Source: Sphingopyxis sp.
GTDB taxonomy: Bacteria; Pseudomonadota; Alphaproteobacteria; Sphingomonadales; Sphingomonadaceae
DNA: 64,000 nt
Assembly (NCBI RefSeq): GCF_035565275.1
Contig: NZ_DATMST010000063.1
Span: 2,537-66,536 of the forward strand
Reading direction: 5' to 3'
The stretch's first letter is position 1. Each line of letters starts with the position of its first letter. The position numbers and the translations under genes were made by a program. The notes under the pieces are model-generated. The model saw only the letters and a list, made by a program, of their open reading frames with translations. It was not told the origin of the DNA and ran no database searches. Below are positions 38,746 to 54,936 of this stretch, piece by piece.

Positions 38746-38919
38746 GCAAAGGGGCCGGCACGGGTCCGAACATCGCGGATGATCGCCCTATTTTTCGCGC
38801 AACGACGAAATAGGAACATATGGCGAACATTTTCGCTTTCCTACATTATTCCGGCACCATAGCCTCCCCGACATCCGAAGCGAAAAGGCGCCCTTCGGGC
38901 GCGAATCAGGGGAAAGCCG

Positions 38920-39144
38920 ATGAAGAAATTTCGTCTGCCGGTGCTGGTGCTGGCGTTGCTGGGGATGGGGCCGGCGGCGATGTCCGCCGAGACGCTTGCC
39001 TACAGCTATGATGCCAAAGGCCGGCTGGTGAAGGTCGTGCGCACCGGCAGCGTGAACAACACTGTCACCGTCGAATACGAGCATGACAAGGCCGACAATC
39101 GCACGCGATTGAAGACGACGAACTCGCCCAATCCGCCGCCGTAA
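38920..39144 (+). CDS. Small secreted single-YD-repeat protein (74 aa)
   Basis: Signal peptide MKKFRLPVLVLALLGMGPAAMSA, then YSYDAKGRL...VEYEHDKADNRT, i.e. two RHS-type YD motifs. Confidence 0.8.
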   Translation: MKKFRLPVLVLALLGMGPAAMSAETLAYSYDAKGRLVKVVRTGSVNNTVTVEYEHDKADNRTRLKTTNSPNPPP

Positions 39145-39196
39145 GGCGCGTCGTTCGACTCGATGAAATAGCCTTTCCAACAGAGGAATTTCCGAC

Positions 39197-42100
39197 ATGC
39201 AAACATCACGCAAACCGGGCGCCCGCCGCGCCCGTCGCTTTCTGTCGTCCGCCGCATGGCTGCCGTTCGCGGTGCTGGCACTGGGCCTGCCCTCGCCGGT
39301 TCGGGCGCAAGACGCACCCGAACCCTATCGCAACGATGACGTCTATGGCGTTGATCTGACCACTGGTAGTTTCAACGTGAAGCTTCTTGAAGGTAGGATC
39401 GGTCCTAGCGATGGCGGTGTAACGTTGGTTCGTTATTCGGGCCGTGGCGGCTATGAAAATAACTGGACCGGAGTACTTAATCGGACCAACGTGGACGGCC
39501 AAACGCGTATTAACATCAGTTTCGGAAATGTGTCTGCCAAGTTTACTCTTGGCTCCGGAGGAGTGTGGACTTCGGACAAATCTGATGGGGCGACCCTCAC
39601 CGAAACGGTCTATGATCAAACGTACAGGGCGGAATATCTTTATCGGGCAGCTGACGGAGCCGAAGTTGTCTTTAAAACGACGCCTTTCATCTCGAACATG
39701 TATCCGACTACCGGCACTGTCACATATAATTGCGCACGAGGCCCTGCGTCGCATTGCGCACTGCCCGTCTCGATGAAGCAAGCAGATGGACAGAAGTTCA
39801 TCCTGTCCTATGACACGAGCTATAGCTGTTTGCCTGGACCGGTGGGCTCGCAAAATTGCTCGGTCGGCGTTGCCCATGGCGCACAGGTTTCATCTTCTTC
39901 TGGTTATGCTGTCTCCTTCGGTACTTCCGGAGCCACTTTATTCCATCCCGATGAAAGAACCTGCGCGGGGTTTAGCTGCACCTTCCCGCCTGACACGCCT
40001 CGCGTGACATATGCTTATCCAACTACCAACGTCCTCGAGGTCACGACGACGAACGGCGAGATATGGCGCTTTACCAAAGGTACAAGCGGGACCGGAAACG
40101 GCCGTATCGTGGGTATCCGGAGTCCAGGCGCAACCAGCGATACGACGGCGATCGCCTATGACAGCAGCGGCCGGGTCACGTCCATCACCGAAGACGGCGT
40201 GACGAAGACCTATAGCTGGGGGACGTCGGGCGGAAATACGGTGGTCAATACGACCGAAGGCGGAACCGACACGGGTCAGGTGGTTTCGAATCCGGCCGTG
40301 GGCCAGCCCACGAACGTGACCAATGGCGCTGCGCAGACTATTACTTACCAATATGACACGTCGGGCCGTCGTACGCGGACGACGATGCCCGAGGGAAATT
40401 ACGTCCACACGACCTACGATGCGCGCGGCAATGTGACCGAGACGCGCGCGGTCGCGAAGCCGGGAAGCGGACCCGCTGATATCGTCACTACGGCAAATTT
40501 CGACGCGGCTTGCACCAATCCGGTCAAGTGCAACAAGCCGAACTGGACGCAGGACGCGCTCGGTAACCGCACCAACTATACTTACGATCCGACGCACGGG
40601 CAGGTGACGAGGGTCCAATTGCCTTCTCCGACCGCCGATGCAGTTGGAGCCGAAACCGGCGTGCGGCCTGAAATCAACTATGGGTACACCGGCATATCGG
40701 TCGCGAGCGGCACCGTGCATAAGCTCACGCAGATCACGACCTGTGCGACCGCGGCGACTTGCAGCGGTACGGCGAACGAGACGAAGGTGACGATCGGTTA
40801 CAATGATCGATTGCTGCCAACGACCGTTACAACGGCTGCGGGCGATGGCTCGATCAGTTCGACCACCACCTATACCTATGACTGGCTGGGCAATGTCACC
40901 AGCGTTGACGGTCCGCTCGCCGGAACTGACGACACGACCTATTATTTTGGCTCGGCCGACTTACCAGCGGGCATCATCTATCCCGATCCCGACGGTGCTG
41001 GCCCGCGTCCGCGACGGGCGGAGCGGCGAAATTATGTGAATTGGACGACGCTCGAGTCGATCTCAATCGGCACAGTTACGGGTACAGCCCTGACCGACTT
41101 GACCGGCATGACCGCGCAGCAGACGATCAGCTACACCTACGACAGCAACAAGAATATCGTCAAGGACGTGACCTCAACCCCGTCGGGAACGGTGAGCGTC
41201 GTCCAGCACAGTTATGACGCCAAGAAACGGCGGACATGCACCGCGCTGCGCATGAACCCCGCGACGTGGAGCGCACTGCCCGCCAGCGCGTGCACCGCGG
41301 CGACGGCGTCGGCGACCTATGGCCCCGACCGCATCACGCGCACCAGCTATGACGCCAACGATCGCGCGACCAAGGTCGAAACCGCGGTTGGCACGGCCGC
41401 CGCCGCCGACGAACTGCGCGCAGCTTATACCGCGAACGGGCAGATCGACCATGTCATCGACGCCGAAAGCAACCGGACGAGCTATATCTACGACGGGTTC
41501 GACCGGCTGTCGCAGACGCGCTATCCCTCGGCCACCAAGGGTGCGAACAGCAGCAACGCGAGCGATTATGAGGGGCTGAGCTATGACGCGCGGAGCAGCG
41601 TGACGCAGCGCCGCCTGCGCGACAACACGGCGGTCGGATACAGCTACGACGATCTTGGCCGGCTGACCGGCAAGGACCTGCCGGGCAGCGAGCCCGATGC
41701 GACCTATGGTTATGACCTGCTGGGCCGGCCGGCGACTGCGGTGCAGGATGGCCAGACACTCTCCTTCGTCCATGACGCCTTGGGGCGGAAAACCGGCGAG
41801 AGCATTCCCTATCTGGGTGCGACGGGTTACGCCTATGATGCGGCCGGGCGGCGGACCAGCATGAGCTATCCGGGCGGCGTGCTGACGGTCAATTACGACC
41901 ATGATGTCACGGGCAATGTCACCGCGATCCGCGAAAACGGCGCGCCATCCGGCGCGGGCGTGCTCGCGACCTATGCGTTCGACGATCTGGGACGGCGTAT
42001 GAGCGTGACGTTCGGCAACGGCAGCACGCAAAATTTCACCTATGATCCCGCGTCGCGGCTGGAGACGTTGACCAATAATCTGGGTGGGGCGGTGACGACG

Positions 42101-43423
42101 CACGACCTGACGCAGACATTCGCCTATAATCCGGCGAGCCAGATCGCCAGCGTCATGCACAGCAACGACGCCTATGCGTGGCAAGGCCATTATAACGTCG
42201 ATCGCGCCTATGTCGCCGACGGGCTCAACCGCATCATGAGCGCGGCTGCCACGAGCATCGGCTATGACGCGCGCGGCAATCTGTCGATGTCGGGCAGCGA
42301 CAGCTACGGTTATGACAGCGAAAACCGGATGACGGGCGCGCCCGGCGGCACGACGCTGCACTATGATCCCGCGGCCCGGTTGAAGCGGATATATTCGGCC
42401 GCGGGGGGAACGACCTGGTTCGGCTATGACGGTGTCGACCGGACCATCGAACTGGATGTCGTCGGCACGGTGCTGCGCCGCAATGTCCACGGCCCCGGCA
42501 TCGACAATCCGATCGTCTGGTACGAGGGCGTGGGCCTCGGCGACCGACGCTTCCTGATGGCCGACGAACGCGGCAGCGTGGTGAGCGTCACCGACAGCGC
42601 CGGCGCGACGGTGGGGCTGAACAGCCATGACGAATATGGCAATCCGGCGCCGGGCAATGTCGGGCGGTTCGGCTATACCGGGCAGACGTGGCTGCCCGAG
42701 CTGGGGATGTGGTATTACAAGGCGCGGATCTATTCGCCGGTGCTCGGGCGGTTCATGCAGACTGATCCGATTGGATATGGCGACGGGATGAACTGGTATA
42801 ACTATGTCGGTGGGGATCCGGTGAATTTTGTGGATCCGTTGGGTCTAAGCTGTGATAATCCCGGAAATGGGGATTATTGTGACCCGTACAATCCGGGTGA
42901 CGATGGTCCAGAAATAAGCGTGATCGCCAACTGCAAGAAGGGTTGGACCTGCTCTGGAAAAGTAATTTGGTACCATATGGAACCTATATCTTTTGATCTG
43001 AGATATATAAATTACTCTTGCAATGCGGGCCGTCTTGTTTGTGAGCGAGAAAAGCCGAAGTATTGTTCGTCAACCACTTATCAGGTTGGAGATCTCATAG
43101 ATGACGTAGGTGGTGCCATTCAAGGAGCGGGGGCTGCTACCGTCGTGGCTGGAGGTGTGATCGGCGTCGCGACGGCATTTACTGGCGTTGGGGTCGGCGC
43201 TGGTGGTGGAGTGGCGGGAGTCGGCGGGACGATCTACACAGGCGGGACCGCCGTATCTGCGATCGGTAATGCAGTTAAATATGCAGGCGGTCAAAGTGGA
43301 GAGTTAACAGCCGCAAAAATGATAAGCCTTCCGATCGTTTATAAACTGAATGCCGTGCCGGGAATCATATCGGATAAAGTTCTATCGGAAACCATAGATG
43401 GGGCTTTGAGTGACCCTTGTTAG
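39197..43423 (+). CDS. RHS/YD-repeat polymorphic toxin-like protein with an N-terminal signal peptide
   Basis: Many YxYD.xGR repeats; RHS core YKARIYSPVLGRFMQTDPIG and DPVNFVDPLGL; variable 191-aa C-terminus; no PAAR/VgrG motif seen. Confidence 0.93.
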   Translation: MQTSRKPGARRARRFLSSAAWLPFAVLALGLPSPVRAQDAPEPYRNDDVYGVDLTTGSFNVKLLEGRIGPSDGGVTLVRYSGRGGYENNWTGVLNRTNVDGQTRINISFGNVSAKFTLGSGGVWTSDKSDGATLTETVYDQTYRAEYLYRAADGAEVVFKTTPFISNMYPTTGTVTYNCARGPASHCALPVSMKQADGQKFILSYDTSYSCLPGPVGSQNCSVGVAHGAQVSSSSGYAVSFGTSGATLFHPDERTCAGFSCTFPPDTPRVTYAYPTTNVLEVTTTNGEIWRFTKGTSGTGNGRIVGIRSPGATSDTTAIAYDSSGRVTSITEDGVTKTYSWGTSGGNTVVNTTEGGTDTGQVVSNPAVGQPTNVTNGAAQTITYQYDTSGRRTRTTMPEGNYVHTTYDARGNVTETRAVAKPGSGPADIVTTANFDAACTNPVKCNKPNWTQDALGNRTNYTYDPTHGQVTRVQLPSPTADAVGAETGVRPEINYGYTGISVASGTVHKLTQITTCATAATCSGTANETKVTIGYNDRLLPTTVTTAAGDGSISSTTTYTYDWLGNVTSVDGPLAGTDDTTYYFGSADLPAGIIYPDPDGAGPRPRRAERRNYVNWTTLESISIGTVTGTALTDLTGMTAQQTISYTYDSNKNIVKDVTSTPSGTVSVVQHSYDAKKRRTCTALRMNPATWSALPASACTAATASATYGPDRITRTSYDANDRATKVETAVGTAAAADELRAAYTANGQIDHVIDAESNRTSYIYDGFDRLSQTRYPSATKGANSSNASDYEGLSYDARSSVTQRRLRDNTAVGYSYDDLGRLTGKDLPGSEPDATYGYDLLGRPATAVQDGQTLSFVHDALGRKTGESIPYLGATGYAYDAAGRRTSMSYPGGVLTVNYDHDVTGNVTAIRENGAPSGAGVLATYAFDDLGRRMSVTFGNGSTQNFTYDPASRLETLTNNLGGAVTTHDLTQTFAYNPASQIASVMHSNDAYAWQGHYNVDRAYVADGLNRIMSAAATSIGYDARGNLSMSGSDSYGYDSENRMTGAPGGTTLHYDPAARLKRIYSAAGGTTWFGYDGVDRTIELDVVGTVLRRNVHGPGIDNPIVWYEGVGLGDRRFLMADERGSVVSVTDSAGATVGLNSHDEYGNPAPGNVGRFGYTGQTWLPELGMWYYKARIYSPVLGRFMQTDPIGYGDGMNWYNYVGGDPVNFVDPLGLSCDNPGNGDYCDPYNPGDDGPEISVIANCKKGWTCSGKVIWYHMEPISFDLRYINYSCNAGRLVCEREKPKYCSSTTYQVGDLIDDVGGAIQGAGAATVVAGGVIGVATAFTGVGVGAGGGVAGVGGTIYTGGTAVSAIGNAVKYAGGQSGELTAAKMISLPIVYKLNAVPGIISDKVLSETIDGALSDPC

Positions 43424-43433
43424 GAGCGGAAAT

Positions 43434-43616
43434 TTGAATAATATTATTAAAAAATATATAATGTACGCTAGTATATCTTCAATTTTATTTATATTAAGTA
43501 TATCTCATTTTTTTCGTTCAGATAAAAGTGCAGAAATTGTTTCGGTTTTTTCATCTATGATTATGTTTTTAATTATTCTATTATGCATTAAATACATAGT
43601 TAAGAAATTTCCGTAA
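43434..43616 (+). CDS. Candidate immunity protein, 60 aa with two TM helices
   Basis: AGGAG RBS then TTG 10 bp after the RHS stop; extremely AT-rich; MNNIIKKYIMYASISSILFILSISHFF...VFSSMIMFLIILLCIKYIVKKFP. Confidence 0.7.
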   Translation: MNNIIKKYIMYASISSILFILSISHFFRSDKSAEIVSVFSSMIMFLIILLCIKYIVKKFP

Positions 43617-43632
43617 GAGCATTTGGAATTAC

Positions 43633-43685
43633 GGTGACAGGTGCAACAATCCCCCATTGACGCGGGGATTGGGGCGCCTGTCGCC
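43633..43685. repeat. REP-like hairpin in front of the transposase stub
   Basis: GGTGACAGGTGC...GCGCCTGTCGCC outer stem, AATCCCC/GGGGATT inner stem. Confidence 0.65.
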
Positions 43686-43765
43686 TGATTCCAACCAGCC
43701 GCGCGTGATTGATCCATTGCGGCGCCACGTGATTGACGGGCGCTCGCAGTGTCCCCACCATGCCC

Positions 43766-43825
43766 ATGGCCCGGCTGCGCCGCATCGTCCTGCCCGGCAT
43801 TCCGCATCATGTGACCCGGCGGGGC
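43766..43825 (+). pseudogene. N-terminal stub of a RAYT/IS200-like (Y1 HUH) transposase
   Basis: MARLRRIVLPGIPHHVTRRG matches the recalled family N-terminus (MAR.xRxxxPGxxHHVTxRG); similarity stops after 20 codons and the frame ends at 43903. Confidence 0.72.
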
Positions 43826-43859
43826 AGACCTCGAGAGCACTTGTTACGCGCCTCACTCC

Positions 43860-44612
43860 TCACCCCAGCCGGCCCGCATACACCCCCATCGCCGCGGCAA
43901 TGAACTCCGCGCACCCCGGTAACTCGGGATGGTCATAGGTGCCGCGGAATTCGGAGTTGTCGGCATAATAGCGGCCAAGGCGCCTGAACGCCGCGGCGTC
44001 GGGGGTCCAGCTGTGCGAGACCCAGCGATAATGGCGGCCGGTCACCTCCTGCACCGCGTCGGACGCGGGATCGGCGCCTTCGCGGAACAGGTGCTGGAAA
44101 TCGGCGCGGATCGCTTCCATCTCTTCTTGGATCGCGGCGACCTGTTCCTTGCTGAAGCTTCGCGCCTTTGCCGCTGCCGCCGCGACGGCATCCTTGCCCC
44201 AGAAGGCTTCGGCCTCGCGCTGCCAGCGGTCGCGCGTTTCGGGGGCGATGCCGGCGTAATAGTCATTGTCTTCCATATGCTCGTCCTTTTCCAGTGATGC
44301 GATCGTGCGATCGATGGTGTGGATGAGGGTGCGGTAGTGGTCGATCCGGCCTTCGAGTGCCGCGCGGTGCTGGCGGAGCGCCGCGAGCGGGTCGAAGCCG
44401 GGATCGTCGAGCACGGCGGCGATCTCCGCCAGCGGCAGGCCGAGCTCGCGGTAAAAGAGGATCTGCTGCAGCCGCAGCAGTTCCTCCTTGCCGTAATAAC
44501 GATAGCCATTGGCGCCGACATGGCCGGGCTTCAGCAGTCCGATCGCATCATAATGATGCAGCGTCCTGACGCTGATGCCCGCCGCTCTTGCGACTTGCCG
44601 AACCGTCCGCAT
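43860..44612 (-). CDS. MerR family regulator with a TipAS domain (TipA/Mta-like)
   Basis: ISVRTLHHYDAIGLLKP...GYRYY, LQQILFYRELGL; C-terminal HYRWV...LGRYYADNSEF. Confidence 0.9.
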   Translation of the reverse strand: MRTVRQVARAAGISVRTLHHYDAIGLLKPGHVGANGYRYYGKEELLRLQQILFYRELGLPLAEIAAVLDDPGFDPLAALRQHRAALEGRIDHYRTLIHTIDRTIASLEKDEHMEDNDYYAGIAPETRDRWQREAEAFWGKDAVAAAAAKARSFSKEQVAAIQEEMEAIRADFQHLFREGADPASDAVQEVTGRHYRWVSHSWTPDAAAFRRLGRYYADNSEFRGTYDHPELPGCAEFIAAAMGVYAGRLG

Positions 44613-44638
44613 TGCCGTCTCCTCATCGTGCGGACAGG

Positions 44639-44669
44639 CCTGTCGGGGATAACGCGGCGTGAGGGTCAA
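44639..44669 (-). promoter_or_regulatory. MerR-type long-spacer promoter/operator
   Basis: TTGACC-CTCACGCCGCGTTATCCCC(19 bp)-GACAGG on the minus strand; resembles recalled Mta/TipA sites; -10 is weak. Confidence 0.5.
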
Positions 44670-44698
44670 GCGCTTTTTTGCACGACCCGCGAACGATC

Positions 44699-45388
44699 CT
44701 AATATTCGATCGTGATCCGGACCTTGTCGGGTTCCACGCCTGCCAGGGCGGCGATTTCTTCGCGGCTGGTGTCGACCAGTGCCCGGATTTGCTTCGACGT
44801 CGCCGACGGGTTGCCGTGCGCCGCCGCGGCGTCGCCGATCAGCAACTCGCGTTCCGACATGCCGAAGGCGTCGGCCAGCGCGATCAGGTTGCTGCGCCGC
44901 GGGACGGTCTTGCCGCTTTCCCACGCCCAGATGCTCGGCTTGCTGAAGCCTGTCCGCACGGAGAGTTCGGCGCGGGTGAGGCCGCGTTCCTGCCGGAGCC
45001 GAAGCAGTCGCGCCGCGAGCATTTCGTCATCGGCAGGAAGGTGCGCGGGGTCGACGTCGTCGGGAAGCGGATTGCGAAGCTGCGCCGCACTGAGCGCGGC
45101 GCGCGACAGCGGCCGGTCGAAACGGCATCCTGCGAGCGCCTCGCTGCGCCATACGATGGTCGCCGCGCAGTCGGGCGCTTCAGGCAGTTCGACGATGATC
45201 CGTTGACCGATCGCGAGGTCGGACACGGTTTCGATCAGCATGCCGGTTGCCGACAGATTGTGGACTACCACGACAGCCCCCTCGTCGCCATCGAAGGACC
45301 CGGGGGCTTCAAATCGCATGTGCATGCGGGCGGCCGCGCGCGTGTCGTCGGCGCCCTGTTCCTGTTCGATCATCGCGTGAATGGGCAT
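44699..45388 (-). CDS. PilZ-XRE HTH fusion regulator A
   Basis: RAAAR (RxxxR) and NLSATG (D/NxSxxG) PilZ motifs; XRE HTH LTRAELSVRTGFSKPSIWAWESG. Confidence 0.82.
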   Translation of the reverse strand: MPIHAMIEQEQGADDTRAAARMHMRFEAPGSFDGDEGAVVVVHNLSATGMLIETVSDLAIGQRIIVELPEAPDCAATIVWRSEALAGCRFDRPLSRAALSAAQLRNPLPDDVDPAHLPADDEMLAARLLRLRQERGLTRAELSVRTGFSKPSIWAWESGKTVPRRSNLIALADAFGMSERELLIGDAAAAHGNPSATSKQIRALVDTSREEIAALAGVEPDKVRITIEY

Positions 45389-45568
45389 GGACCAGCCCTA
45401 TGCGGGGCAATCGGTTGTCGAGTGGTTAAAGGCGCGGGCCGCATCGCGGGGCCATGCGCGGTCCGGCACATGGCAGCAAGGTCGGTTTACCCGATCGCGG
45501 GCCGAACCGTGCGCTGATTGCGGCGGGCCAGTTTTGCGATTTTTCCCGGATTTTGGCCGCTGGCGGGC

Positions 45569-45801
45569 CTTTTGATTAACTTAAACCAAATCATTAGGTT
45601 AAGTTTTGACGTGCCGCTGTCCCGATTCTGAACGCCAGTGGCCCCATTGTCCCGGTAGCGCCGGCGGGATTAACCTTCGACAGGTGCGAAAAATCGCGGA
45701 TTTCTTTGCAAGTTGAATGGCATCGTCGATGCGGATTTTCGGTTGACGCCCATTTTGAGGGTGTGAACCCCTCTTAATCCATGTACTAAGTTTTTCTTAA
45801 C
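45569..45801. promoter_or_regulatory. AT-rich divergent control region with multiple TTAA motifs and a CtrA-like site
   Basis: AACTTAA-N14-TTAAGTT (45578-45605), ATTAACCTT (45669), CTAA-N7-TTAAC (45786-45801). Confidence 0.5.
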
Positions 45802-45905
45802 GGAGGGGGGTGAGTCGGGTCGCGACTCCCCGGGCGTCGGGGGATGCCCAATGGTTATCCGCAAAGCGGGGCCGGAAACCGTTTGGTTTTTTGGGGGGTT
45901 GTGAC

Positions 45906-46430
45906 ATGAGGTTCATGCTCTTTGCGCTTGCGGCGGCGGCTTTTGCTGTGCCTGCGAACGCCAGCGAAATCGAGAATGTCCGGTCGTTCGACATCGCGGT
46001 CAGCGGTTCGATTCGCCAGCATTGCGCGATGGGTAGCATTCAGAACATGGATTTCGGCAACCTCGAACGCCGCGGTCTCGCTATCCAGACACAAGTCGCC
46101 TTCGACTGCAACGTCCCCTTCACGATGATGATCAAGGGGGCGCGCGGCGGACTTACGCACACGAAGATGCCGAACGGGCAGGGCCCGTATGCCGGCGTGT
46201 TGCCCTATAGCCTGGCCGTCGAACTGCCCGTGCGGCATCCGGCCGCCGAAATGCTCAACCGGTCATTCAACAGCCACCAGCTTCAGGCCGGCGGTGTGAT
46301 TTCCAGCAACGGCGGCATCGCCACCGACGGCATGGTCCTTGCGGTCCAGCTTGGCACGCCATCGGGCGAAGCGGGGCTGCTCGCCGGCGAATATTCGGAG
46401 ACGATCACGATAACCGTTTCTCCGATCTAA
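45906..46430 (+). CDS. Fimbrial (chaperone-usher) minor subunit
   Basis: Signal peptide, alternating donor-strand pattern FDIAVSGSI, two Cys, MDFG, terminal GEYSETITITVSP. Confidence 0.75.
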   Translation: MRFMLFALAAAAFAVPANASEIENVRSFDIAVSGSIRQHCAMGSIQNMDFGNLERRGLAIQTQVAFDCNVPFTMMIKGARGGLTHTKMPNGQGPYAGVLPYSLAVELPVRHPAAEMLNRSFNSHQLQAGGVISSNGGIATDGMVLAVQLGTPSGEAGLLAGEYSETITITVSPI

Positions 46431-46572
46431 TGAATTCGTCCGCGGGCGAACCGCGGGCGGTAGCCGGAAGGGCAGGCACCGCTGCTCTCCCGGTCTCCGA
46501 CCAGAACGGTGCAGGTATTAGGCCGCAGTCCGGCAAATGGGCCGGGGCGGTATAATAGAGGGAAGAAGATTT

Positions 46573-47331
46573 ATGAAGAAGATCCTTTGCGGCGCCGTTG
46601 CCGCTATCGCTCTCGTCGGCGCCGCAGCGCCCGCCGCCGCGCAGACCAACCAGCGTCACTATGCCGGCGTCATCGCTGGTATTCCCTACACCTCGACCAA
46701 CCCGGGCGGTCTCGCCACCATCGGTCTCGAACTCGGCCTTCTGGGCGGCATCGGCACGCGCTACACCGCGCAGGCCAATGCTCCGGCCAGCACCGGCACG
46801 ATCGACGACGAAGTCACCGTCGCCTTCACGCTGACGGGTGAAGTCCCGCAGGATTGCTCGTTCTATTCGGGCAACAACAGCGCAGCGCGCGACATCGATT
46901 TCGGCGTGATCGGCATCCGTGGCGGCGACAATGAAAACGTCGGTTCGGCCTTCGAAATGACCGGCCCGGCCGTCGCCAACATCGAAACGCTGACTGCTGG
47001 CTGCAACTTCAACAACGAAGTCAGCATCCAGAAGACCAACGGCGTCAACGGCCTCGTCAACGCGGCTGCCGGCGGTTACGACACCGACGAATTCCAGGCG
47101 AACATTCCGTACAGCGTGAATGCAAGCTGGACCGGCGTTGCGTACAACACCGTGACCACGGGCACGCCGCAGTCGCTGGCCGTTTCGACCTCGCAGCCCG
47201 GCGCGACCAAGCTGCAGGGTGCATGGCGTTCGGACATGGACATCAACATCAACGCTCCGGCGATCACCAGCAAGGGTCTGGTCGCTGGTCAGTATTCGGA
47301 CGTCGTGACGCTGAAGCTGACCGCGCTCTAA
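46573..47331 (+). CDS. Probable major fimbrial subunit with an extended N-terminus
   Basis: Signal peptide, FTLTGEVPQDC...IDFG...AGCN, terminal AGQYSDVVTLKLTAL; strongly biased codons; own terminator. Confidence 0.8.
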   Translation: MKKILCGAVAAIALVGAAAPAAAQTNQRHYAGVIAGIPYTSTNPGGLATIGLELGLLGGIGTRYTAQANAPASTGTIDDEVTVAFTLTGEVPQDCSFYSGNNSAARDIDFGVIGIRGGDNENVGSAFEMTGPAVANIETLTAGCNFNNEVSIQKTNGVNGLVNAAAGGYDTDEFQANIPYSVNASWTGVAYNTVTTGTPQSLAVSTSQPGATKLQGAWRSDMDININAPAITSKGLVAGQYSDVVTLKLTAL

Positions 47332-47350
47332 GTTGATGCTGTGAATATGG

Positions 47351-47383
47351 GAAAGGGGGAAGAGCGATCTTTCCCCTTTCTTT
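47351..47383 (+). terminator. Intrinsic terminator/stabiliser after the major subunit gene
   Basis: GAAAGGGGGAAGA-GCGA-TCTTTCCCCTTTC-TTT. Confidence 0.75.
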
Positions 47384-47423
47384 ATGAATAGGGAATATGC
47401 CGGAAACGGCGGGGGATGGGATT

Positions 47424-48227
47424 ATGACGGCATTGGCGATGTTGAAGCGTCGTGGGCGCGCTTTGCTGGCGATTTTTGCCGCACTTGCGGTGCTCGTCAG
47501 TCCGGCCTTGGCCATGCGCGTCTCCCCGATGGTGGTCGAGATGGAATCGCGCGGCAGTTCCGCCGTCGCCCGCATCGAGGTCCAGAACATCAACCCGGGC
47601 AATCTGGCTTTCCAGACCCGCGTCTTCCGCATGGAATTCGACAAGGATGGAAAGGTCGTCGAAACCCCGGCCGACGACCAGTTCCTGATCTTTCCGCCGC
47701 AGGGTGTGCTCGCTGCCGGCGGCCGTCAGGTCGTGCGACTGCAGTGGGTTGGCGATCCCGAACTGGCCGCATCGCAAGCCTATTATGTTTCGGTCGAGCA
47801 ATTGCCGGTGGCATTCGAACCCGGTGCCACCGAAACGGTGGGTGCTCAGGTCCAGGTGCTTTACAATATGCGCGCGCTGGTCGTGGTGGCGCCCCCGGGG
47901 GCAAAGCCGCAGGTCAAGGCCACCTCGGTAAAGGCGGTTACGTATCAGCCCCCGGCGCTTCCCGGCGCGACGGACCTTCCGCCGATGCAGGACGGGCTTG
48001 AAATCACGCTGCGCAACGATGGCCGCCGCCACGCGATGATGGCGAATTTCGGCTGGCTGCTCGAAGGCACGGACAAGGACGGAAAATGGCTGCGGGTCGA
48101 CATCTCGCCCGAAGAACTGACCCGCGCTGTCGGCACGGGCTATGTTCCCGCCCAGGGTGAACGCGTTTTCCGGATTCCGGTCCCCGGTTTCGGGCCCGGC
48201 CCCGTGAAGCTGTCGTTCAAGCAATGA
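47424..48227 (+). CDS. Periplasmic fimbrial chaperone (non-classical type)
   Basis: Signal peptide, VSPMVVEM, FLIFPPQGVL..GGRQVVRLQW, YYVSVEQLP. Confidence 0.88.
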   Translation: MTALAMLKRRGRALLAIFAALAVLVSPALAMRVSPMVVEMESRGSSAVARIEVQNINPGNLAFQTRVFRMEFDKDGKVVETPADDQFLIFPPQGVLAAGGRQVVRLQWVGDPELAASQAYYVSVEQLPVAFEPGATETVGAQVQVLYNMRALVVVAPPGAKPQVKATSVKAVTYQPPALPGATDLPPMQDGLEITLRNDGRRHAMMANFGWLLEGTDKDGKWLRVDISPEELTRAVGTGYVPAQGERVFRIPVPGFGPGPVKLSFKQ

Positions 48228-50851
48228 GGAGGGGACTCGTCCTTTGCTCGGTGGCGCTTCCGGCCTTATGCGCCGGCACGGCGGCCGCGCAGGTTTCCAT
48301 TCCGCTGCCCCAGAGTCAGAAGACAACGCCGCCGGTACAGAATCAGGGCGAACCGACGACCATTCCGCTCCCGGGAACGCCGATACCGCCGGTGCCAACT
48401 CCGACGCCGGTCATGCCGCAGTTGCCGATCGGCGCGCATGGCCGTCCGGACATCAACCCGTACAACCGCGACATCGACATGACGGTGCCGCTGACATTCC
48501 TGAACCGCAGCTTGGGCGATATTCCGATGCGGCTGACGGCGGACGACCGTTTCCTGCTCGAATCGGAAACCTTTCTCCGCCTGATGCGGCCCGTGCTGAA
48601 CGATCCGGCGCACGCCACCCTGGCGGGGCATCTGCAGAATCTGACGCAATTCGGTCCCGATGACCTCGCGAAAACCGGCGTCGCGCTGAACTATGATCCC
48701 AGCACGCTGGCGGTGGTCGTCGTCGAAGTGACACCGGAACAGCGGGCGATACAGAACCTGTTCGCGCCGCCTCGCGACGATATCAACAGCGTCACGCTGC
48801 AACCCGCCGATTTTTCCGCCTATCTCAATCTGAACGTCATCCAGACCAAGATTTGGGAAGCCGACGGGACCGATCCGCCCACAGTCAATTTCGACGGTGC
48901 GATCCGGCTCGGCCGCATCGTTTTCGAAGCCGATGCCCAGTTCGCGCAGACCTTTGGCCTGACCGAGGACAAGTATAAATTCTCGCGCAACTATGCGCGG
49001 CTCGTCTATGACGAACCCGAGGATTATCGCCGCTGGTTTCTCGGCGATCTCGACCCTGAAATCCGCGGCCAGCAATCCTTCGTCCAGATGGGCGGCGTCG
49101 GCGTGCTGCGACAGCAGCGGCGTTTCAACACCTTCCGGTCGGCCGTTCTGCAATCCAACCGCCAGCTTGTTCTTCAGCGGGAATCAACGGTTCGCTTCCT
49201 GCGCAACGGATCGCTCTATCGCGAGGTGCGGCTGCAGCCCGGCAGCTATGATTTCAGTTCGCTGCCGCTGATTGCCGGCAGCAACGACATCGACATCCAA
49301 GTCACCGACAATACCGGGGCCATCCAGAATCTGTCGTATCAGCAATATCTCGACCCGATCGATCTCGATCCGGGCGATTATGAATATGGCGCCTTTCTGG
49401 GCCCGACGAGCAGCAGGTTCGGTCGCGCACCCGACTATCGCGGGCCGGTCGCCTTCACCGGCTTTTTTCGCAAGGCCTTTTTCGATGCCCCCGCGGTCGG
49501 GGTCGGTCTTCAGGTCAGCAAAGACGTCCAGACGCTTACCGGCCAGACCCAGTTCGTGCTCGGAAACGGCGGGCGACTGCTCCTCGATGCGGGGGGCAGC
49601 AATTCAAAATCGGCCGGGCAGGGTTATGCCGGCGGCATCAGCTACGAGCATTTCATCGACCGTGCAGGACTGTCCGACAGCTTCACGCTGCGGGGTGATT
49701 ATCTGTCGCCGAAGTTCGCGACGCTGGGCAATATCGACGGGATCAATACCACGTCGATGACGCTGTCGGCGCAATATACCCGGCAATTCAGCCTTCGCTT
49801 CATGACCACATCGACCGCGTCCTATCTCAGGGGACGCGGGTCACTTGGCGACAGCTACCGCGTGGGGACTACCGGCTATTATCGCATCGACCGGAAATGG
49901 ACGCTCCGCGCCGGGGTCGATTATTCAAAATATCCGTCGACCTTTTCGCGCCGGGAAGGCGTCAGTTTCAATATCGGGCTCGTCTTCCAGCCCGACTATC
50001 GCCGACGGGCTGAAGCCCGCTACGAAAGCCGCGACAATCTCGCCGAGCTTTCCTACAATCAAAGCGGTCTCAACCAGCTCAACAGCGTCGGCTTCGGCGG
50101 TGTGGTTGCGCATCAGGATGACAATGTCCGCGCGCAGGGCTATGCGACCTATTCGGCGAACCGCTTCGACGCGGCGATCAGCCACGCAACCTATGGCCCC
50201 AGCTTCTCCGACTTCGGTGCGGTCAACGCCACTTCGGTCCGCGTCGGTACCACCATCGCTTTCGCCGACGGCACGGTCGGCGTCGGGCGGCGGATCAACG
50301 ACAGCTTCATGCTGCTATCTGGGCACAAGAATCTGGGCAAGCGCAGCGTGGTCGCCGGCCAGTCGCTGGCCGAGAATAATTATATCGGCAAAAGCGGCCC
50401 GCTCGGGGCAGCGGTCAACAATTTCCTTGGTTCCTATTCCACCCAGTCGGTGCAATATGATGTCGAGAATCCGCCGACGGGATACGATGTCGGACCGGGC
50501 GTGTTCCGGGTCCATCCGCCGTACAAGAGCGGTTATGCGGCGCGCATCGGCACCGACGCGTTTGCCAGCGTCATGGGTACGCTGATTCTCGCTCCCGACA
50601 TGCCTGTGTCGCTGATCGGCGGCCGTGTGACCCTGCTCGATGTCCAGGAAACCGAAACGCCCAAGCCGATTCCGTTCTTCACCAATTCGGCCGGACGCTT
50701 TGCGATCGCCAACCTGTTGCCGGGTCGCCGCTATGTGGTGGAAACCTATGGTCCCAATGGTACGATCGACCGGAGCTTTGAATTCACGGTGCCGGCGGAC
50801 ACCAATGGTCTGGTGAACCTTGGCCCCGTTCGCCCCGGTTCGAAAAATTAG
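48224..50851 (+). CDS. Fimbrial usher (outer membrane)
   Basis: 875 aa, signal peptide, RRWFLGDL, plug motif LQPGSYDFSSLPLIAGSNDIDIQVTD, beta-strand-rich barrel, FFTNSAGRF. Confidence 0.88.
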   Translation: MRRGLVLCSVALPALCAGTAAAQVSIPLPQSQKTTPPVQNQGEPTTIPLPGTPIPPVPTPTPVMPQLPIGAHGRPDINPYNRDIDMTVPLTFLNRSLGDIPMRLTADDRFLLESETFLRLMRPVLNDPAHATLAGHLQNLTQFGPDDLAKTGVALNYDPSTLAVVVVEVTPEQRAIQNLFAPPRDDINSVTLQPADFSAYLNLNVIQTKIWEADGTDPPTVNFDGAIRLGRIVFEADAQFAQTFGLTEDKYKFSRNYARLVYDEPEDYRRWFLGDLDPEIRGQQSFVQMGGVGVLRQQRRFNTFRSAVLQSNRQLVLQRESTVRFLRNGSLYREVRLQPGSYDFSSLPLIAGSNDIDIQVTDNTGAIQNLSYQQYLDPIDLDPGDYEYGAFLGPTSSRFGRAPDYRGPVAFTGFFRKAFFDAPAVGVGLQVSKDVQTLTGQTQFVLGNGGRLLLDAGGSNSKSAGQGYAGGISYEHFIDRAGLSDSFTLRGDYLSPKFATLGNIDGINTTSMTLSAQYTRQFSLRFMTTSTASYLRGRGSLGDSYRVGTTGYYRIDRKWTLRAGVDYSKYPSTFSRREGVSFNIGLVFQPDYRRRAEARYESRDNLAELSYNQSGLNQLNSVGFGGVVAHQDDNVRAQGYATYSANRFDAAISHATYGPSFSDFGAVNATSVRVGTTIAFADGTVGVGRRINDSFMLLSGHKNLGKRSVVAGQSLAENNYIGKSGPLGAAVNNFLGSYSTQSVQYDVENPPTGYDVGPGVFRVHPPYKSGYAARIGTDAFASVMGTLILAPDMPVSLIGGRVTLLDVQETETPKPIPFFTNSAGRFAIANLLPGRRYVVETYGPNGTIDRSFEFTVPADTNGLVNLGPVRPGSKN

Positions 50852-50861
50852 GAGGCATTAT

Positions 50862-51779
50862 ATGCTGCGCCCAACCCTGTTTCTCGCTGCGGCCTTCCTC
50901 GCGATGCCGCTCCACGCCCAAGCGCCGGCGCCGGGCGCTGCCATTCCCGGCGCCGAATGTCTCATCCGGACCAGCGCCACGCCGGCAAGCTGGCTGATCC
51001 AGGGCTATGATCCGTTCGACGGCTCGATTCCCGAGGGAACCTTCGGCGTCACCTTCGTCAACGAGGGCACGGCCGAATGCCGTTTTACCCCGACCTTCGA
51101 GCTCGTCCAGCCGCCCTTCGGCCTGTCGAAAGGCACGGGAAAGCCGATCGGTTACGCCCTGCTCAACCTGACCGATACGCAGGATGTGACGCCGCGCGCC
51201 GGACGGACGCAGCGCAATCCGTCGCAGCGCATGCTGGCGCTCAGCCCCAATGCATCGCGCACATTGCTCTACAAGCTGGTCGCCGACCCCGACGATGTCC
51301 GCAATTCGGGCACCTTTACCCAGGATGTGACACTCGAGGCGCAGGACAGCAGCTTCCGCTCGCTCGGCGGTACGCGCATCGTTCTCGGCATCGATGTTCT
51401 GCCATCGGCGAGGATCGGGCTCGCCGGCGCCTACACGATGAGCGATGGGCAGGCGGTCGTCGATCTCGGCGACTTGCGGCCCGGCGTCGCGCCGGTGCCG
51501 CTGCAGCTTCGCGTTGCCAGCACTGGCTCATATGACCTGAACGTCACGTCGGCCAATTCGGGCCGGTTGCGGCTGGGCGCGAGCGACTGGTACGTGCCTT
51601 ACAGCCTGGCGATCGGCGGCAATTCGATCAACTTGACGGGCGCGCGAACGATATCGGGGAAGTCGAACGACGGGCTCCGCCGCGAAGCGCTGCCGATCCA
51701 GTTTCTCATTGGCGACACCTCCGATCGCCGTGCGGGGGTGTACAGCGACGTCGTCTCGATCTCGGTAACCGCACGCTGA
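50862..51779 (+). CDS. Two-domain fimbrial tip/adhesin-like subunit
   Basis: GGAGG RBS, signal peptide, two pilin-like halves ending GTFTQDVTLE and AGVYSDVVSISVTAR. Confidence 0.72.
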   Translation: MLRPTLFLAAAFLAMPLHAQAPAPGAAIPGAECLIRTSATPASWLIQGYDPFDGSIPEGTFGVTFVNEGTAECRFTPTFELVQPPFGLSKGTGKPIGYALLNLTDTQDVTPRAGRTQRNPSQRMLALSPNASRTLLYKLVADPDDVRNSGTFTQDVTLEAQDSSFRSLGGTRIVLGIDVLPSARIGLAGAYTMSDGQAVVDLGDLRPGVAPVPLQLRVASTGSYDLNVTSANSGRLRLGASDWYVPYSLAIGGNSINLTGARTISGKSNDGLRREALPIQFLIGDTSDRRAGVYSDVVSISVTAR

Positions 51780-51833
51780 CCCAACGCGGCCTCGCTGCTG
51801 CCGCAATCAACGGGCGGGAGCGAGGATGCTCCC

Positions 51834-51848
51834 TTAACTGAATGTTAG
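51834..51848 (+). promoter_or_regulatory. CtrA-like site upstream of the last subunit gene
   Basis: TTAA-CTGAATG-TTAG, one mismatch to TTAA-N7-TTAA. Confidence 0.4.
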
Positions 51849-51905
51849 ATTTGCGAGTCTAGACAGTCATCCAAGAGCTTCGGCCTAAAGGCGGAAAGGT
51901 TGCGG

Positions 51906-52319
51906 ATGATCAGGAAATTCTCGCTCGGCATCGCGAGCTTTGTGCTCGTTGCGGCGCCGACGACCGCGATGGCGGCGTCGTTCGGCCTTAACCTCCGCCT
52001 GACGGTTTCGGTGCACTGCACCGTCCAGCATCAGGCGACCGGATTCGGTGCGATCAGCGGCGATGCGGTGTCGCTCGGCACCTTCCGCGAATATTGCAAT
52101 GCGCCGACCGGCTACGACCTCGTCATCAACTATGCGCCGGGTTCGCTGGAAGGCGCACGGATCATCGCGGGGAATGACGAGATCATTCTCAATGGATCGG
52201 GCCAGGCTGTTCTCAGCCGTGCGACGGGACCGCGGATGAGGGAACGCCCGATCGCGGCGGTCCCCGGCGAACGTGGTTTCGATACCGATCGCTTTGAACT
52301 GCGCATCGTTCCGTCCTGA
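51906..52319 (+). CDS. Small secreted pilin-like or accessory protein
   Basis: Signal peptide, LNLRLTVSVHC donor-strand-like pattern, two Cys. Confidence 0.6.
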   Translation: MIRKFSLGIASFVLVAAPTTAMAASFGLNLRLTVSVHCTVQHQATGFGAISGDAVSLGTFREYCNAPTGYDLVINYAPGSLEGARIIAGNDEIILNGSGQAVLSRATGPRMRERPIAAVPGERGFDTDRFELRIVPS

Positions 52320-52454
52320 CGCCGGCATCGGGCGGCGATCGGCCACGATCGGAACATCGTCCGTTTTTCGATAGACTGGCGCCGCTCTGACAGGGCGGTT
52401 TCGACGGCCACGCCCTGCGTGAACCGGCGCGCCCCGGTCACGTGCCGTTCCGGC

Positions 52455-53123
52455 CTATATCTCGATGATCAACTTGATGTTGCCGGGGGCGACGCCAGCC
52501 GCCTTCGCGATTTGTTCTTTCGCGCGGGCGATCAGATCGTTCAGACTTTCAGTTTCCTCGAAGCCCAGAAGCTCGGAAACTTCTACGCCGAGCGCGTTCG
52601 ACAACGCTTCCACCCGGCCGGCCCGGGGGCGGGCCTTGTCGAGTTCCCAGGCCGAGATCGACGGTTCGCTGACACCGAGCTGCGCTGCGAGCTGGCCTTG
52701 CGTCAGATCTTTCGCGGTCCGTAATCGCTGCAGGCGGATGCCGAAACTTTCGGCGGACGGTGCCGCCGGATCGGAGGATGTCTGGGCGTCGGATTCGATC
52801 ACCACGCTGCGCAGTTGCGCGGCGCTGAGCGTCGCTGACGAAACCGGCATTGCGAATTCGCACCCCGCGAGGGGGCCGCTCACCCAGATCACTTTGGCAG
52901 CGGTTTTCCCGCTATGCGGCAGATTGACCTCGATCACCTCGCCGATTTCGAGAGCCGCGCCGCTTTCGACCAGCATTCCCGTTGCGGAAATATTATGGAC
53001 CAGCGCCTCGACTTCGGCACCGGTGGCCTTCGATCCCTGCAGCGGAAGCCGCAACTGCCGGCGCGCGGCGCGGCCCTTGGCGGCCGAGCGGGGGTCTTCG
53101 TTCAGATATACGGTCATTGCCAT
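52455..53123 (-). CDS. PilZ-XRE HTH fusion regulator B
   Basis: RAARR (RxxxR) and NISATG; XRE HTH LTQGQLAAQLGVSEPSISAWELDK; paralog of regulator A. Confidence 0.85.
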   Translation of the reverse strand: MAMTVYLNEDPRSAAKGRAARRQLRLPLQGSKATGAEVEALVHNISATGMLVESGAALEIGEVIEVNLPHSGKTAAKVIWVSGPLAGCEFAMPVSSATLSAAQLRSVVIESDAQTSSDPAAPSAESFGIRLQRLRTAKDLTQGQLAAQLGVSEPSISAWELDKARPRAGRVEALSNALGVEVSELLGFEETESLNDLIARAKEQIAKAAGVAPGNIKLIIEI

Positions 53124-53216
53124 CGGTGCTCAATCGCGAGCCCAGCCTTAATATTTCCCTTCGGTTCAAGGTTAATGAACAGGGTGACATAGAGTCCCGC
53201 TCTTGGGGAGTGCGCC

Positions 53217-53241
53217 GGAACCCGCCGCGCGCTGACCCGTT
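53217..53241 (+). promoter_or_regulatory. Sigma-EcfG promoter of the hemerythrin gene
   Basis: GGAAC-N16-CGTT, perfect consensus. Confidence 0.8.
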
Positions 53242-53273
53242 TTGTCTTCGATCCCCAATGGACGGAGACCGAC

Positions 53274-54936
<1,663 letters not shown>

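Follow-up and report, generated by a model that had tools for sequence, protein, structure and literature searches.

The closest described counterpart of the system considered here is MrkH of Klebsiella pneumoniae, the activator of the mrkABCDF type 3 fimbriae, which combines a YcgR-N-like domain with a PilZ domain, has no helix-turn-helix (HTH) and contacts DNA in an unusual manner, through its PilZ-type domains (PMC12564702). In a 2025 review of effectors of c-di-GMP (cyclic dimeric guanosine monophosphate), MrkH is the sole entry for a PilZ-based transcription factor, and fusions of PilZ to other domains are named as an open direction. Here we describe two such fusions, PXa and PXb, encoded in a 64,000-nucleotide stretch of Sphingopyxis sp. 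DNA (the window; contig NZ_DATMST010000063.1, positions 2,537 to 66,536). Each joins an N-terminal PilZ domain to a Cro/C1-type (XRE) HTH and a C-terminal helix and tail, and between the two genes lies a putative chaperone-usher pilus cluster (Table 1). The reading of PXa and PXb as c-di-GMP-sensing transcription factors is the best one we can offer; sequence, fold and gene neighbourhood give it a good footing. We lean, by a modest degree, toward the fuller account in which they are one-component c-di-GMP-responsive regulators with the pilus cluster as their Sphingopyxis target.

Like MrkH, PXa and PXb have a PilZ sensor domain and are encoded beside a chaperone-usher operon, and the comparison made in the initial annotation is sound. 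The mrk locus also includes a c-di-GMP turnover gene, mrkJ, and 13 Sphingopyxis relatives of the window have a gene for a PAS-GGDEF-EAL protein. MrkH structures are among the fold matches of the PXa N-terminal domain, while a sequence relationship beyond the PilZ fold is undetectable. Unlike MrkH, the Sphingopyxis proteins combine one PilZ domain with a canonical XRE HTH and the tail, and the adjacent pilus resembles Csu rather than type 3 fimbriae. By this comparison they would be functional analogues of MrkH at most, and not members of its family.

Other described proteins share one half of the architecture. PA0012, the Alg44 PilZ domain, MapZ/PA4608, MotI/DgrA, YcgR and VCA0042/PlzD have the fold, motifs and motif spacing of PXa and are its best structural matches, but they work by protein-protein contacts on enzymes, motors and chemotaxis proteins, and none has an HTH. 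The DNA-binding domain of BldD is XRE-like, but tetrameric c-di-GMP is recognized by an RxD-x8-RxxD motif at the C-terminus (PMC4151990); BldD has no PilZ domain. Additional one-component c-di-GMP transcription factors follow the same logic, in which the ligand changes promoter occupancy, often at adhesion or motility targets; none contains PilZ. The repressors P22 c2, 434 cI, DdrO and SinR resemble the PXa HTH in sequence or fold, and in SinR and DdrO, as in PXa, a C-terminal oligomerization element follows the HTH. In contrast to these phage-type XRE repressors, PXa and PXb carry PilZ at the N-terminus, and their helix and tail are unrelated to the SinR and DdrO C-terminal domains.

A full-text literature search for PilZ fused to an XRE or other HTH returned nothing relevant, in agreement with the earlier impression that this architecture is uncharacterized, although a 2020 survey of PilZ architectures may catalogue it. 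NCBIfam has no model for the PilZ-HTH combination or for any protein of the cluster, and database names of family members are generic ("helix-turn-helix domain-containing protein", "PilZ domain-containing protein").

Domain architecture and predicted structure

The two genes were initially annotated as paralogous PilZ-XRE genes bracketing a chaperone-usher cluster, and the open reading frames (ORFs), Pfam searches and pairwise alignment (38% identity over 213 aa, E 1e-40) bear this out. The PilZ profile (PF07238, cut-off 22.5 bits) matches PXa with 35.1 bits (E 1.7e-8) and PXb with 33.5 bits (E 5.4e-8). For the HTH, PXa matches HTH_31 and HTH_3 (E 8.6e-15 and 3.2e-13) and PXb matches HTH_3 (E 4.7e-14); in a test of HTH_3 (PF01381/PF13560), the proteins score 49.9 and 52.6 bits, respectively, against a cut-off of 23.

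The sequence features that had been noted initially are all present in the translations. The c-di-GMP motifs read R17AAAR21 and N44LSATG49 in PXa, with 23 residues from R21 to N44, and RAARR and NISATG in PXb. A linker, LAGC(R/E)F..P.S...LSAAQLR, is common to both, the recognition helices differ (SKPSIWAWE in PXa, SEPSISAWE in PXb), and the proteins end in similar tails (IAALAGVEPDKVRITIEY and IAKAAGVAPGNIKLIIEI). In an alignment of 92 genome-derived family members, S46 and G49 are kept in all 92, position 44 is N in 78 and D in 14, and R21 is present in each of the 89 homologues that have a residue there; the RxxxR motif corresponds to R17-R21 in clade I and R18-R22 in clade II of the phylogeny described below. 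We take this conservation as a sign of strong purifying selection, and the motif pattern is, as judged from the alignment, that of the c-di-GMP-binding PilZ type and not the degenerate type.

Table 1. Features of the PXa-PXb locus and related elements elsewhere; positions are those of the window unless a locus (L) or contig (C) is given.
Feature	Position	Strand	Basis
PXa, PilZ + XRE-HTH + C-terminal helix/tail regulator (clade I), 229 aa	44699..45388	-	ORF, Pfam
PXa PilZ domain, residues 16-105	45074..45343	-	Pfam match, invariant motifs, Foldseek
PXa Cro/C1-type (XRE) HTH, residues 124-184	44837..45019	-	Pfam, PDB sequence matches, Foldseek
PXa C-terminal helix and conserved tail, residues 194-229, ...IAALAGVEPDKVRITIEY	44702..44809	-	model, family conservation
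PXb, PilZ + XRE-HTH + tail regulator (clade II), 222 aa	52455..53123	-	ORF, Pfam
PXa-pil1 divergent control region, 514 bp	45389..45902	.	conserved blocks, TTAA enrichment
Promoter-proximal box TTAACCACTCGACAAC, 26-41 nt before PXa start codon	45414..45429	-	clade I conservation
28-bp palindrome AACTTAAACCAA-atca-TTAGGTTAAGTT, candidate operator	45578..45605	.	12-nt arms, 83% complementary
Three direct repeats CTTAAT-N6-ACTAAG-N5-CTTAAC, ~100 nt upstream of pil1	45773..45801	+	conserved in all orthologues
CtrA-box-like CTAA-N7-TTAAC, last two of the three repeats	45786..45801	+	motif scan
PXb promoter region, common with divergent hemerythrin gene	53124..53273	.	conserved element in 11 orthologues
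pil1, 175-aa secreted pilin-like protein, first cluster gene	45903..46430	+	weak SCPU, signal peptide, C-terminal motif AGEYSETITITV, conserved in 15 loci
pil2, second pilin-like subunit, secreted, 252 aa	46573..47331	+	ORF; C-terminal motif AGQYSDVVTLKL resembling that of pil1
Periplasmic chaperone	47397..48227	+	PapD_N
Outer-membrane usher, 875 aa, very divergent	48224..50851	+	sub-cut-off Pfam Usher
305-aa secreted protein, possibly tip subunit/adhesin	50862..51779	+	C-terminal AGVYSDVVSISVT; conserved in 13 loci
139-aa secreted protein, last cluster gene	51900..52319	+	ORF, signal peptide; conserved in 10-14 loci
PilZ-HTH + PAS-GGDEF two-gene module	L049:10001-11878; 34 other loci, e.g. 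L052, L073, L077	same strand	synteny
Split PilZ+tail / HTH+tail relatives	L087:355-987, L089:357-947, L088:377-793	-	congeneric genomes
TTAAC clusters besides 45389-45902	C305:1821-1836; C186:6094-6160; C237:5554-5666; C241:12552-12639; C175:58514-58547; C312:498-580		genome scan

We modeled full-length PXa with AlphaFold2 from 78 homologues (mean predicted local distance difference test score, pLDDT, 77). In the model, a beta-barrel (residues 22-90) is followed by a helix (96-105), a disordered linker, the HTH with its five helices (124-184) and a long helix (194-216); the C-terminal helix and tail are modeled confidently (pLDDT 85-95). A Foldseek search of the PDB with this full-length model returned HTH proteins alone and no PilZ structure. 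Residues 1-112 were therefore modeled separately. This model contains six strands within residues 22-90 (barrel pLDDT ~80) and a helix at 96-104, and 36 of its 37 top Foldseek matches in the PDB are PilZ structures, mostly solved with c-di-GMP bound, including PA0012, Alg44, BcsA, MapZ, MotI, PP4397, VCA0042, MrkH and YcgR. The N-terminal domain thus has, according to the model, a PilZ fold. The HTH matches P22 c2, the 434 repressor and DdrO in PDB sequence searches (E 1e-4 to 1e-2) and the same three in Foldseek (template modeling score to target 0.8-0.9), where SinR is matched as well.

PilZ domains that do not bind c-di-GMP exist (PMC10333796), and PXa and PXb might be ordinary XRE repressors in which PilZ serves protein interaction or dimerization, as in the Xanthomonas or Pseudomonas non-binders. 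The poorly modeled N-terminal 20 residues of PXa could be cited in favor of this view. A disordered RxxxR arm is, however, usual in PilZ domains without ligand. The known non-binders have lost RxxxR and/or (D/N)xSxxG, whereas essentially all 92 homologues, which span two deep clades, retain the two motifs, and genes for c-di-GMP turnover or binding are repeatedly adjacent. We regard a non-binding PilZ domain as highly improbable. Conversely, we are confident that PXa and PXb bind c-di-GMP, and slightly more confident still that they bind DNA in a sequence-specific manner.

Family distribution and phylogeny

The PilZ-HTH family is uncharacterized and confined to one family of the Sphingomonadales. 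The regulator was found in 12 of 151 Sphingomonadales genomes (full-length in 10), all of the window's GTDB family, and in none of 300 other genomes sampled across the Alphaproteobacteria. Within these bounds the family is large. Clustering at 90% identity gives more than 130 clusters; at 50% identity, about 350 clusters out of 1.84 billion representatives match with E<=1e-30, most of them over the full length in a single stretch. In species-representative genomes there are 350 loci.

A maximum-likelihood tree divides the family into two deep clades, each with a Shimodaira-Hasegawa approximate likelihood ratio test (SH-aLRT) value of 100. Clade I contains PXa and genes of Sphingopyxis, Sphingobium and Sphingorhabdus, with PXa orthologues in Sphingopyxis at 64-79% identity. 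Clade II consists of genes from Novosphingobium, Tsuneonella, Erythrobacter and their relatives, with PXb nested among them on a long stem branch (0.93). Since they fall in two deep clades, PXa and PXb are ancient paralogues and not the product of a local duplication; a recent tandem duplication is ruled out by the tree. The clade II recognition helix is near-invariant across genera (GVSKPTVWAWE), but is fixed as GVSEPSISAWELDK in all 12 PXb orthologues. This replacement points to a DNA specificity that was altered after PXb had been recruited to the cluster locus.

Association with pilus and c-di-GMP genes

Synteny was counted for the best 80 of the 350 loci, with 10-kb flanks. As proposed initially, PXa is divergent from the first pilin gene, and with the pil1 start at 45903 the two genes have a control region of 45389-45902 in common; at the other end, PXb and the last cluster gene are convergent. 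A PXa-type gene is divergent from pil1 in 15 loci as well as in L017 and the window, which amounts to about 17 of the 22 Sphingopyxis clade I loci. The arrangement of the window is seen again in 11 further Sphingopyxis loci that carry both paralogues, and another 5 have it with the PXa-type gene alone; because of this recurrence it is not a matter of chance. Each of the 12 PXb orthologues closes a window-type cluster at its distal end. In addition, clade I genes adjoin a different chaperone-usher cluster (~30% identity) in L015 and, in another genomic context, in Sphingorhabdus (L031, L034). Altogether, chaperone-usher genes stand beside the regulator in 17 of the 80 loci, all in Sphingopyxis or Sphingorhabdus.

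Genes of c-di-GMP signaling are the more widespread neighbors. Outside the PXb group, 35 of 46 clade II genes are followed directly, on the same strand, by a gene for a PAS-GGDEF protein of ~310 aa, and the surrounding genes are of several unrelated kinds. A member of this PAS-GGDEF cluster is found in 41 of the 80 loci when 7 kb around the regulator is considered. The protein's GGDEF signature is degenerate in every case (GSERF, GGGTF, GGESF, DGDRF and others), while the RxxD inhibitory site is mostly kept, and for these reasons the protein looks like a non-catalytic, c-di-GMP-binding partner. The pair would accordingly be a conserved module of two putative c-di-GMP receptors. The window's genome has 21 GGDEF genes, among which we found generic GGDEF similarity but no orthologue of the degenerate partner. 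In 13 Sphingopyxis relatives, PXb, or the cluster itself in loci without PXb, has as its neighbor a gene for a 731-aa PAS-GGDEF-EAL protein whose GGDEF is canonical; the window lacks this gene at 53124-53273, and its best match in the genome (contig C294) is 50% identical. Thus, the association with c-di-GMP genes is family-wide and the association with pili is clade-specific.

Several observations weigh against pilus control. No chaperone-usher gene lies within 10 kb in 63 of the 80 loci. Five Sphingopyxis clade I loci are without the cluster, PXa orthologues persist without it in L010, L018 and L020, and clade I genes in Sphingobium have unrelated neighbors. The regulator and the window's usher subfamily occur together in 6 of 151 Sphingomonadales genomes and are adjacent only in the window's genus, whereas the usher subfamily is present in 8 of 141 genomes without the regulator, and its second copy in the window's genome is flanked by a LysR gene and a response regulator. 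The interval from queA to tgt, in which the cluster is located, is variable, and an insertion hot spot may be behind some of the adjacency. Two points of a different kind are that the inter-domain arrangement in the full-length PXa model is uncertain (predicted template modeling score 0.41), and that the conserved promoter boxes described below are direct repeats, which suit CtrA better than an XRE dimer.

From such observations one could argue that PXa and PXb respond to c-di-GMP but regulate themselves and other genes, with the cluster an accessory insertion in the queA-tgt block where PXa is resident. The 63 loci without chaperone-usher genes fit this account, as do the PAS-GGDEF gene as commonest neighbor, the three PXa orthologues without a cluster (of which that in L010 still lies beside the tgt-hemerythrin block), the variable gene content between PXa and tgt among relatives, with an RHS block specific to the window, and the conserved boxes at a fixed distance before regulator genes in every context. 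On the other hand, the divergent PXa-pil1 pairing survives ~55% divergence of the regulator protein, clade I is independently tied to a second cluster type in L031 and L034, PXb is never found away from the cluster, and the uniqueness in the genome of a palindrome in the control region (see below) fits a local regulator. We consider this alternative account unlikely. The c-di-GMP-gated fimbrial switch of the initial annotation stands in part: the PXa-pil1 pairing supports it for Sphingopyxis, while a general linkage of the family to fimbriae does not hold, most homologues being unlinked. We limit the claim to Sphingopyxis, where control of the window's pilus operon by PXa and PXb is reasonable to suppose but in our estimate evenly poised.

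If PXa and PXb do act as c-di-GMP-responsive regulators of the pilus cluster, the ligand would be held as in other PilZ proteins, with the flexible RxxxR arm on one side and the barrel strand bearing (D/N)xSxxG on the other. Binding would reposition PilZ relative to the HTH, or alter oligomerization through the tail, and operator occupancy would change. PXa would act on the 514-bp region that it has in common with pil1. PXb would be a diverged copy recruited from the PilZ-HTH/degenerate-GGDEF module, which with its new recognition helix would provide a second, cluster-associated input. PilZ joined directly to a canonical HTH would be the simplest device for conveying c-di-GMP to transcription, and the two proteins would offer a clean system for studying how ligand binding by PilZ is relayed to an adjoining domain; they could also serve as compact, portable c-di-GMP-responsive regulators for reporters. 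They would further be the first regulatory handle on the barely studied Csu-like pili of sphingomonads, bacteria that are abundant in biofilms, drinking-water systems and pollutant degradation.

Some further features of these neighborhoods were recorded. The PAS-GGDEF-EAL protein has a weak C-terminal PilZ match, and its gene sits between hemerythrin and PXb or the cluster (e.g., L007:1-2112, L010:1716-3908, L040:802-2991). In Sphingobium bisphenolivorans (L024:11543-13142), a clade I regulator adjoins csgF/csgG curli-secretion genes, another surface-fiber system. PXa is followed, after 83 bp and on the same strand, by a MerR/TipAS-type regulator gene (43860-44615, minus strand), whose ORF as listed is over-extended at its 5´ end and overlaps PXa; the gene also comes after the PXa orthologue in five or six relatives. 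In the relatives L007-L016, queA comes directly after PXa, or after PXa and then MerR; the RHS toxin block between queA and MerR (38746-43900) is specific to the window's genome.

Control regions and CtrA-like boxes

The 514-bp region between PXa and pil1 contains several AT-rich blocks that are conserved across 14 orthologous loci in a genome of 64% G+C. TTAA is depleted about five-fold in this genome, where 4.54 Mb contain 997 copies, yet the region has seven TTAA (expected 0.11, Poisson P 4e-11) and five TTAAC (expected 0.08, P 2e-8), making it the second densest TTAAC cluster of the genome. It includes a 28-bp palindrome, unique in the genome, of which the outer arms, CTTAA...TTAAG, are kept in orthologues; the general type CTTAA-N10-20-TTAAG occurs three times in the genome. 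We propose this palindrome as the likeliest candidate for an operator bound by a dimeric HTH protein.

The other conserved elements are direct repeats. YTAA-N7-TTAAC has 11 sites in the genome, one of them formed by the last two of the three repeats upstream of pil1, which follow each other at a spacing of 11-12 bp; in orthologues, the box reads (Y/G)TAA-N7-(T/C)TAAC, and a perfect TTAA-N7-TTAAC is present in L014 and L042. Clade I genes have TTAAC-N6-(G/C)AAAC 26-42 nt before the start codon in differing genomic contexts, and 37 of 46 clade II genes have CTAACC-N5-TTAAC ~57 nt before theirs. In 11 PXb orthologues, TTAACC-N17-(G/A)TTAA(T/G) is conserved ~30-60 nt before the start codon, an element that could be a sigma-70-like -35/-10 pair. 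No sigma-70 consensus promoter was found in 45300-46000. Elsewhere in the genome, TTAAC clusters precede a ctrA-like gene, where there is a palindromic site that is perfect, as well as motB/motA and a pair of stand-alone PilZ genes. Such clusters, with the one before the pilin gene, probably outline a CtrA-type regulon, with the caveat that the CtrA motif was taken from other alphaproteobacteria and assumed for this organism.

We lean slightly toward reading the direct-repeat boxes as CtrA-like, and consider it unlikely that they are the regulators' own operators, since direct repeats spaced by one turn of the helix are more readily explained by a response regulator of the CtrA type than by an XRE dimer. 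Given that the control region carries CtrA-box-like repeats, pilus expression is probably integrated with the CtrA motility and cell-cycle regulon. Together with the family-wide pairing with degenerate GGDEF proteins, the boxes suggest a conserved link between a cell-cycle/motility regulator and c-di-GMP output in the Sphingomonadales.

This raises the alternative that the pilus operon and the regulator genes are mainly under CtrA, or another direct-repeat-binding response regulator, acting through the TTAAC boxes, and that the PilZ-HTH proteins are members of the regulon. The CtrA form of the pil1 box, perfect in two orthologous loci, the genes that lie behind the other TTAAC clusters, and the overlap of the 11-bp-spaced direct repeats with the expected -35 position in both clades all speak for such control, and in a passage of PMC6472365 CtrA is cited as governing motility and biofilm formation in Sphingomonas melonis. 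This control would, however, be compatible with c-di-GMP-responsive regulation by PXa and PXb. Moreover, no perfect TTAA-N7-TTAA is present anywhere in the window, the 5´ half-site of the clade II box is CTAA or ATAA in 36 of 37 genes and TTAA in one, such that it could mark another protein or even the regulator itself, and the motif is, as noted, borrowed from other alphaproteobacteria. As an explanation for the locus, control mainly by CtrA or a similar response regulator appears improbable to us.

An RNA element or riboswitch in the control region was considered and rejected, a permissive Rfam search of 43500-54000 giving matches at chance level only and no family in this region. Clade I genes are without a Shine-Dalgarno sequence, and the element GC(G)xATAG is conserved at 9-15 nt from their ATG on the upstream side (e.g., 45389-45430); their mRNAs may be leaderless.

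The C-terminal tail and possible oligomers

The C-terminal helix and tail are conserved family-wide and are probably an oligomerization module. As the tail is kept also in genomes with a single copy of the regulator, its basic role is probably homo-oligomerization, and it is not a specific sign of a PXa-PXb heterodimer. At the same time, three congeners (G057, G122 and G143) have split relatives, in which either PilZ and the tail occur without the HTH or the HTH and the tail occur without PilZ. This distribution suggests that the tail serves these proteins as a common interaction module, through which mixed assemblies could form, and a PXa-PXb heterodimer of this kind is possible. There are no split paralogues in the window's genome, where PXa and PXb are the two full-length genes. 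An obligate PXa-PXb heteromer seems to us quite unlikely.

A more speculative and, taken as a whole, rather unlikely extension is a tail-linked c-di-GMP network in which PilZ-HTH-tail, PilZ-tail and HTH-tail proteins form mixed oligomers. In such a network, PXa and PXb would constitute a two-input switch on the pil1 control region that gates an archaic pilus jointly with CtrA, while elsewhere the regulator would pair with a catalytically dead GGDEF protein retaining its I-site. If this were true, the network and CtrA would together tie adhesion to both a second messenger and the cell-cycle/motility program.

The chaperone-usher cluster

Six secreted or outer-membrane proteins are encoded on the plus strand between PXa and PXb. 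The chaperone is the sole cluster protein above its Pfam cut-off (PapD_N, 26.9 bits against 23), and a search of the PDB with its profile returned CsuC only (E 0.002). The usher match is below the cut-off (17.8 bits against 27.1, E 0.0016) but spans ~440 residues (321-764), and the SCPU match of pil1 is likewise sub-threshold (19 bits against 22.4, E 0.0018). The pil2, 305-aa and 139-aa proteins have no Pfam match, and profile searches of the PDB with the usher and pil1 gave none. With hhalign, pil1 shows a weak C-terminal match to the 305-aa protein (E 0.007, probability 5.6%) and no relationship to the 139-aa protein. pil2 is conserved, and is duplicated in L008 and L022; in the Sphingorhabdus loci L031 and L034, the gene divergent from the regulator encodes a distant homologue of the 139-aa protein.

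A non-classical, Csu-like chaperone-usher system is a reasonable reading of the cluster. The archaic Csu pili of Acinetobacter baumannii, built of SCPU-domain subunits, have the same order of pilin(s), chaperone, usher and further subunit, and CsuC is the sole solved relative of the chaperone; the subunits of the window show a weak SCPU match and a C-terminal motif G-x-Y-S-D/E-x-h-x-h-x-V. Unlike Csu, the window's usher and pilins fall below the Pfam cut-offs, and the usher and pil1 are without a PDB sequence match. Csu genes are not known to have PilZ-HTH regulators at their flanks.

The usher subfamily of the window is present in 14 of 151 Sphingomonadales genomes. The second cluster of this subfamily in the same genome (contig C136:8951-15338, usher 30% identical) has as its neighbors the LysR regulator, the response regulator with its kinase and a membrane GGDEF protein, and no PilZ-HTH gene. 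Within the cluster of the window, stable GC-rich hairpins directly follow the pil1 stop codon (46431-46545; minimum free energy -55.9 kcal/mol, z -2.45) and may form an attenuator that sets the ratio of the major subunit to the assembly genes.

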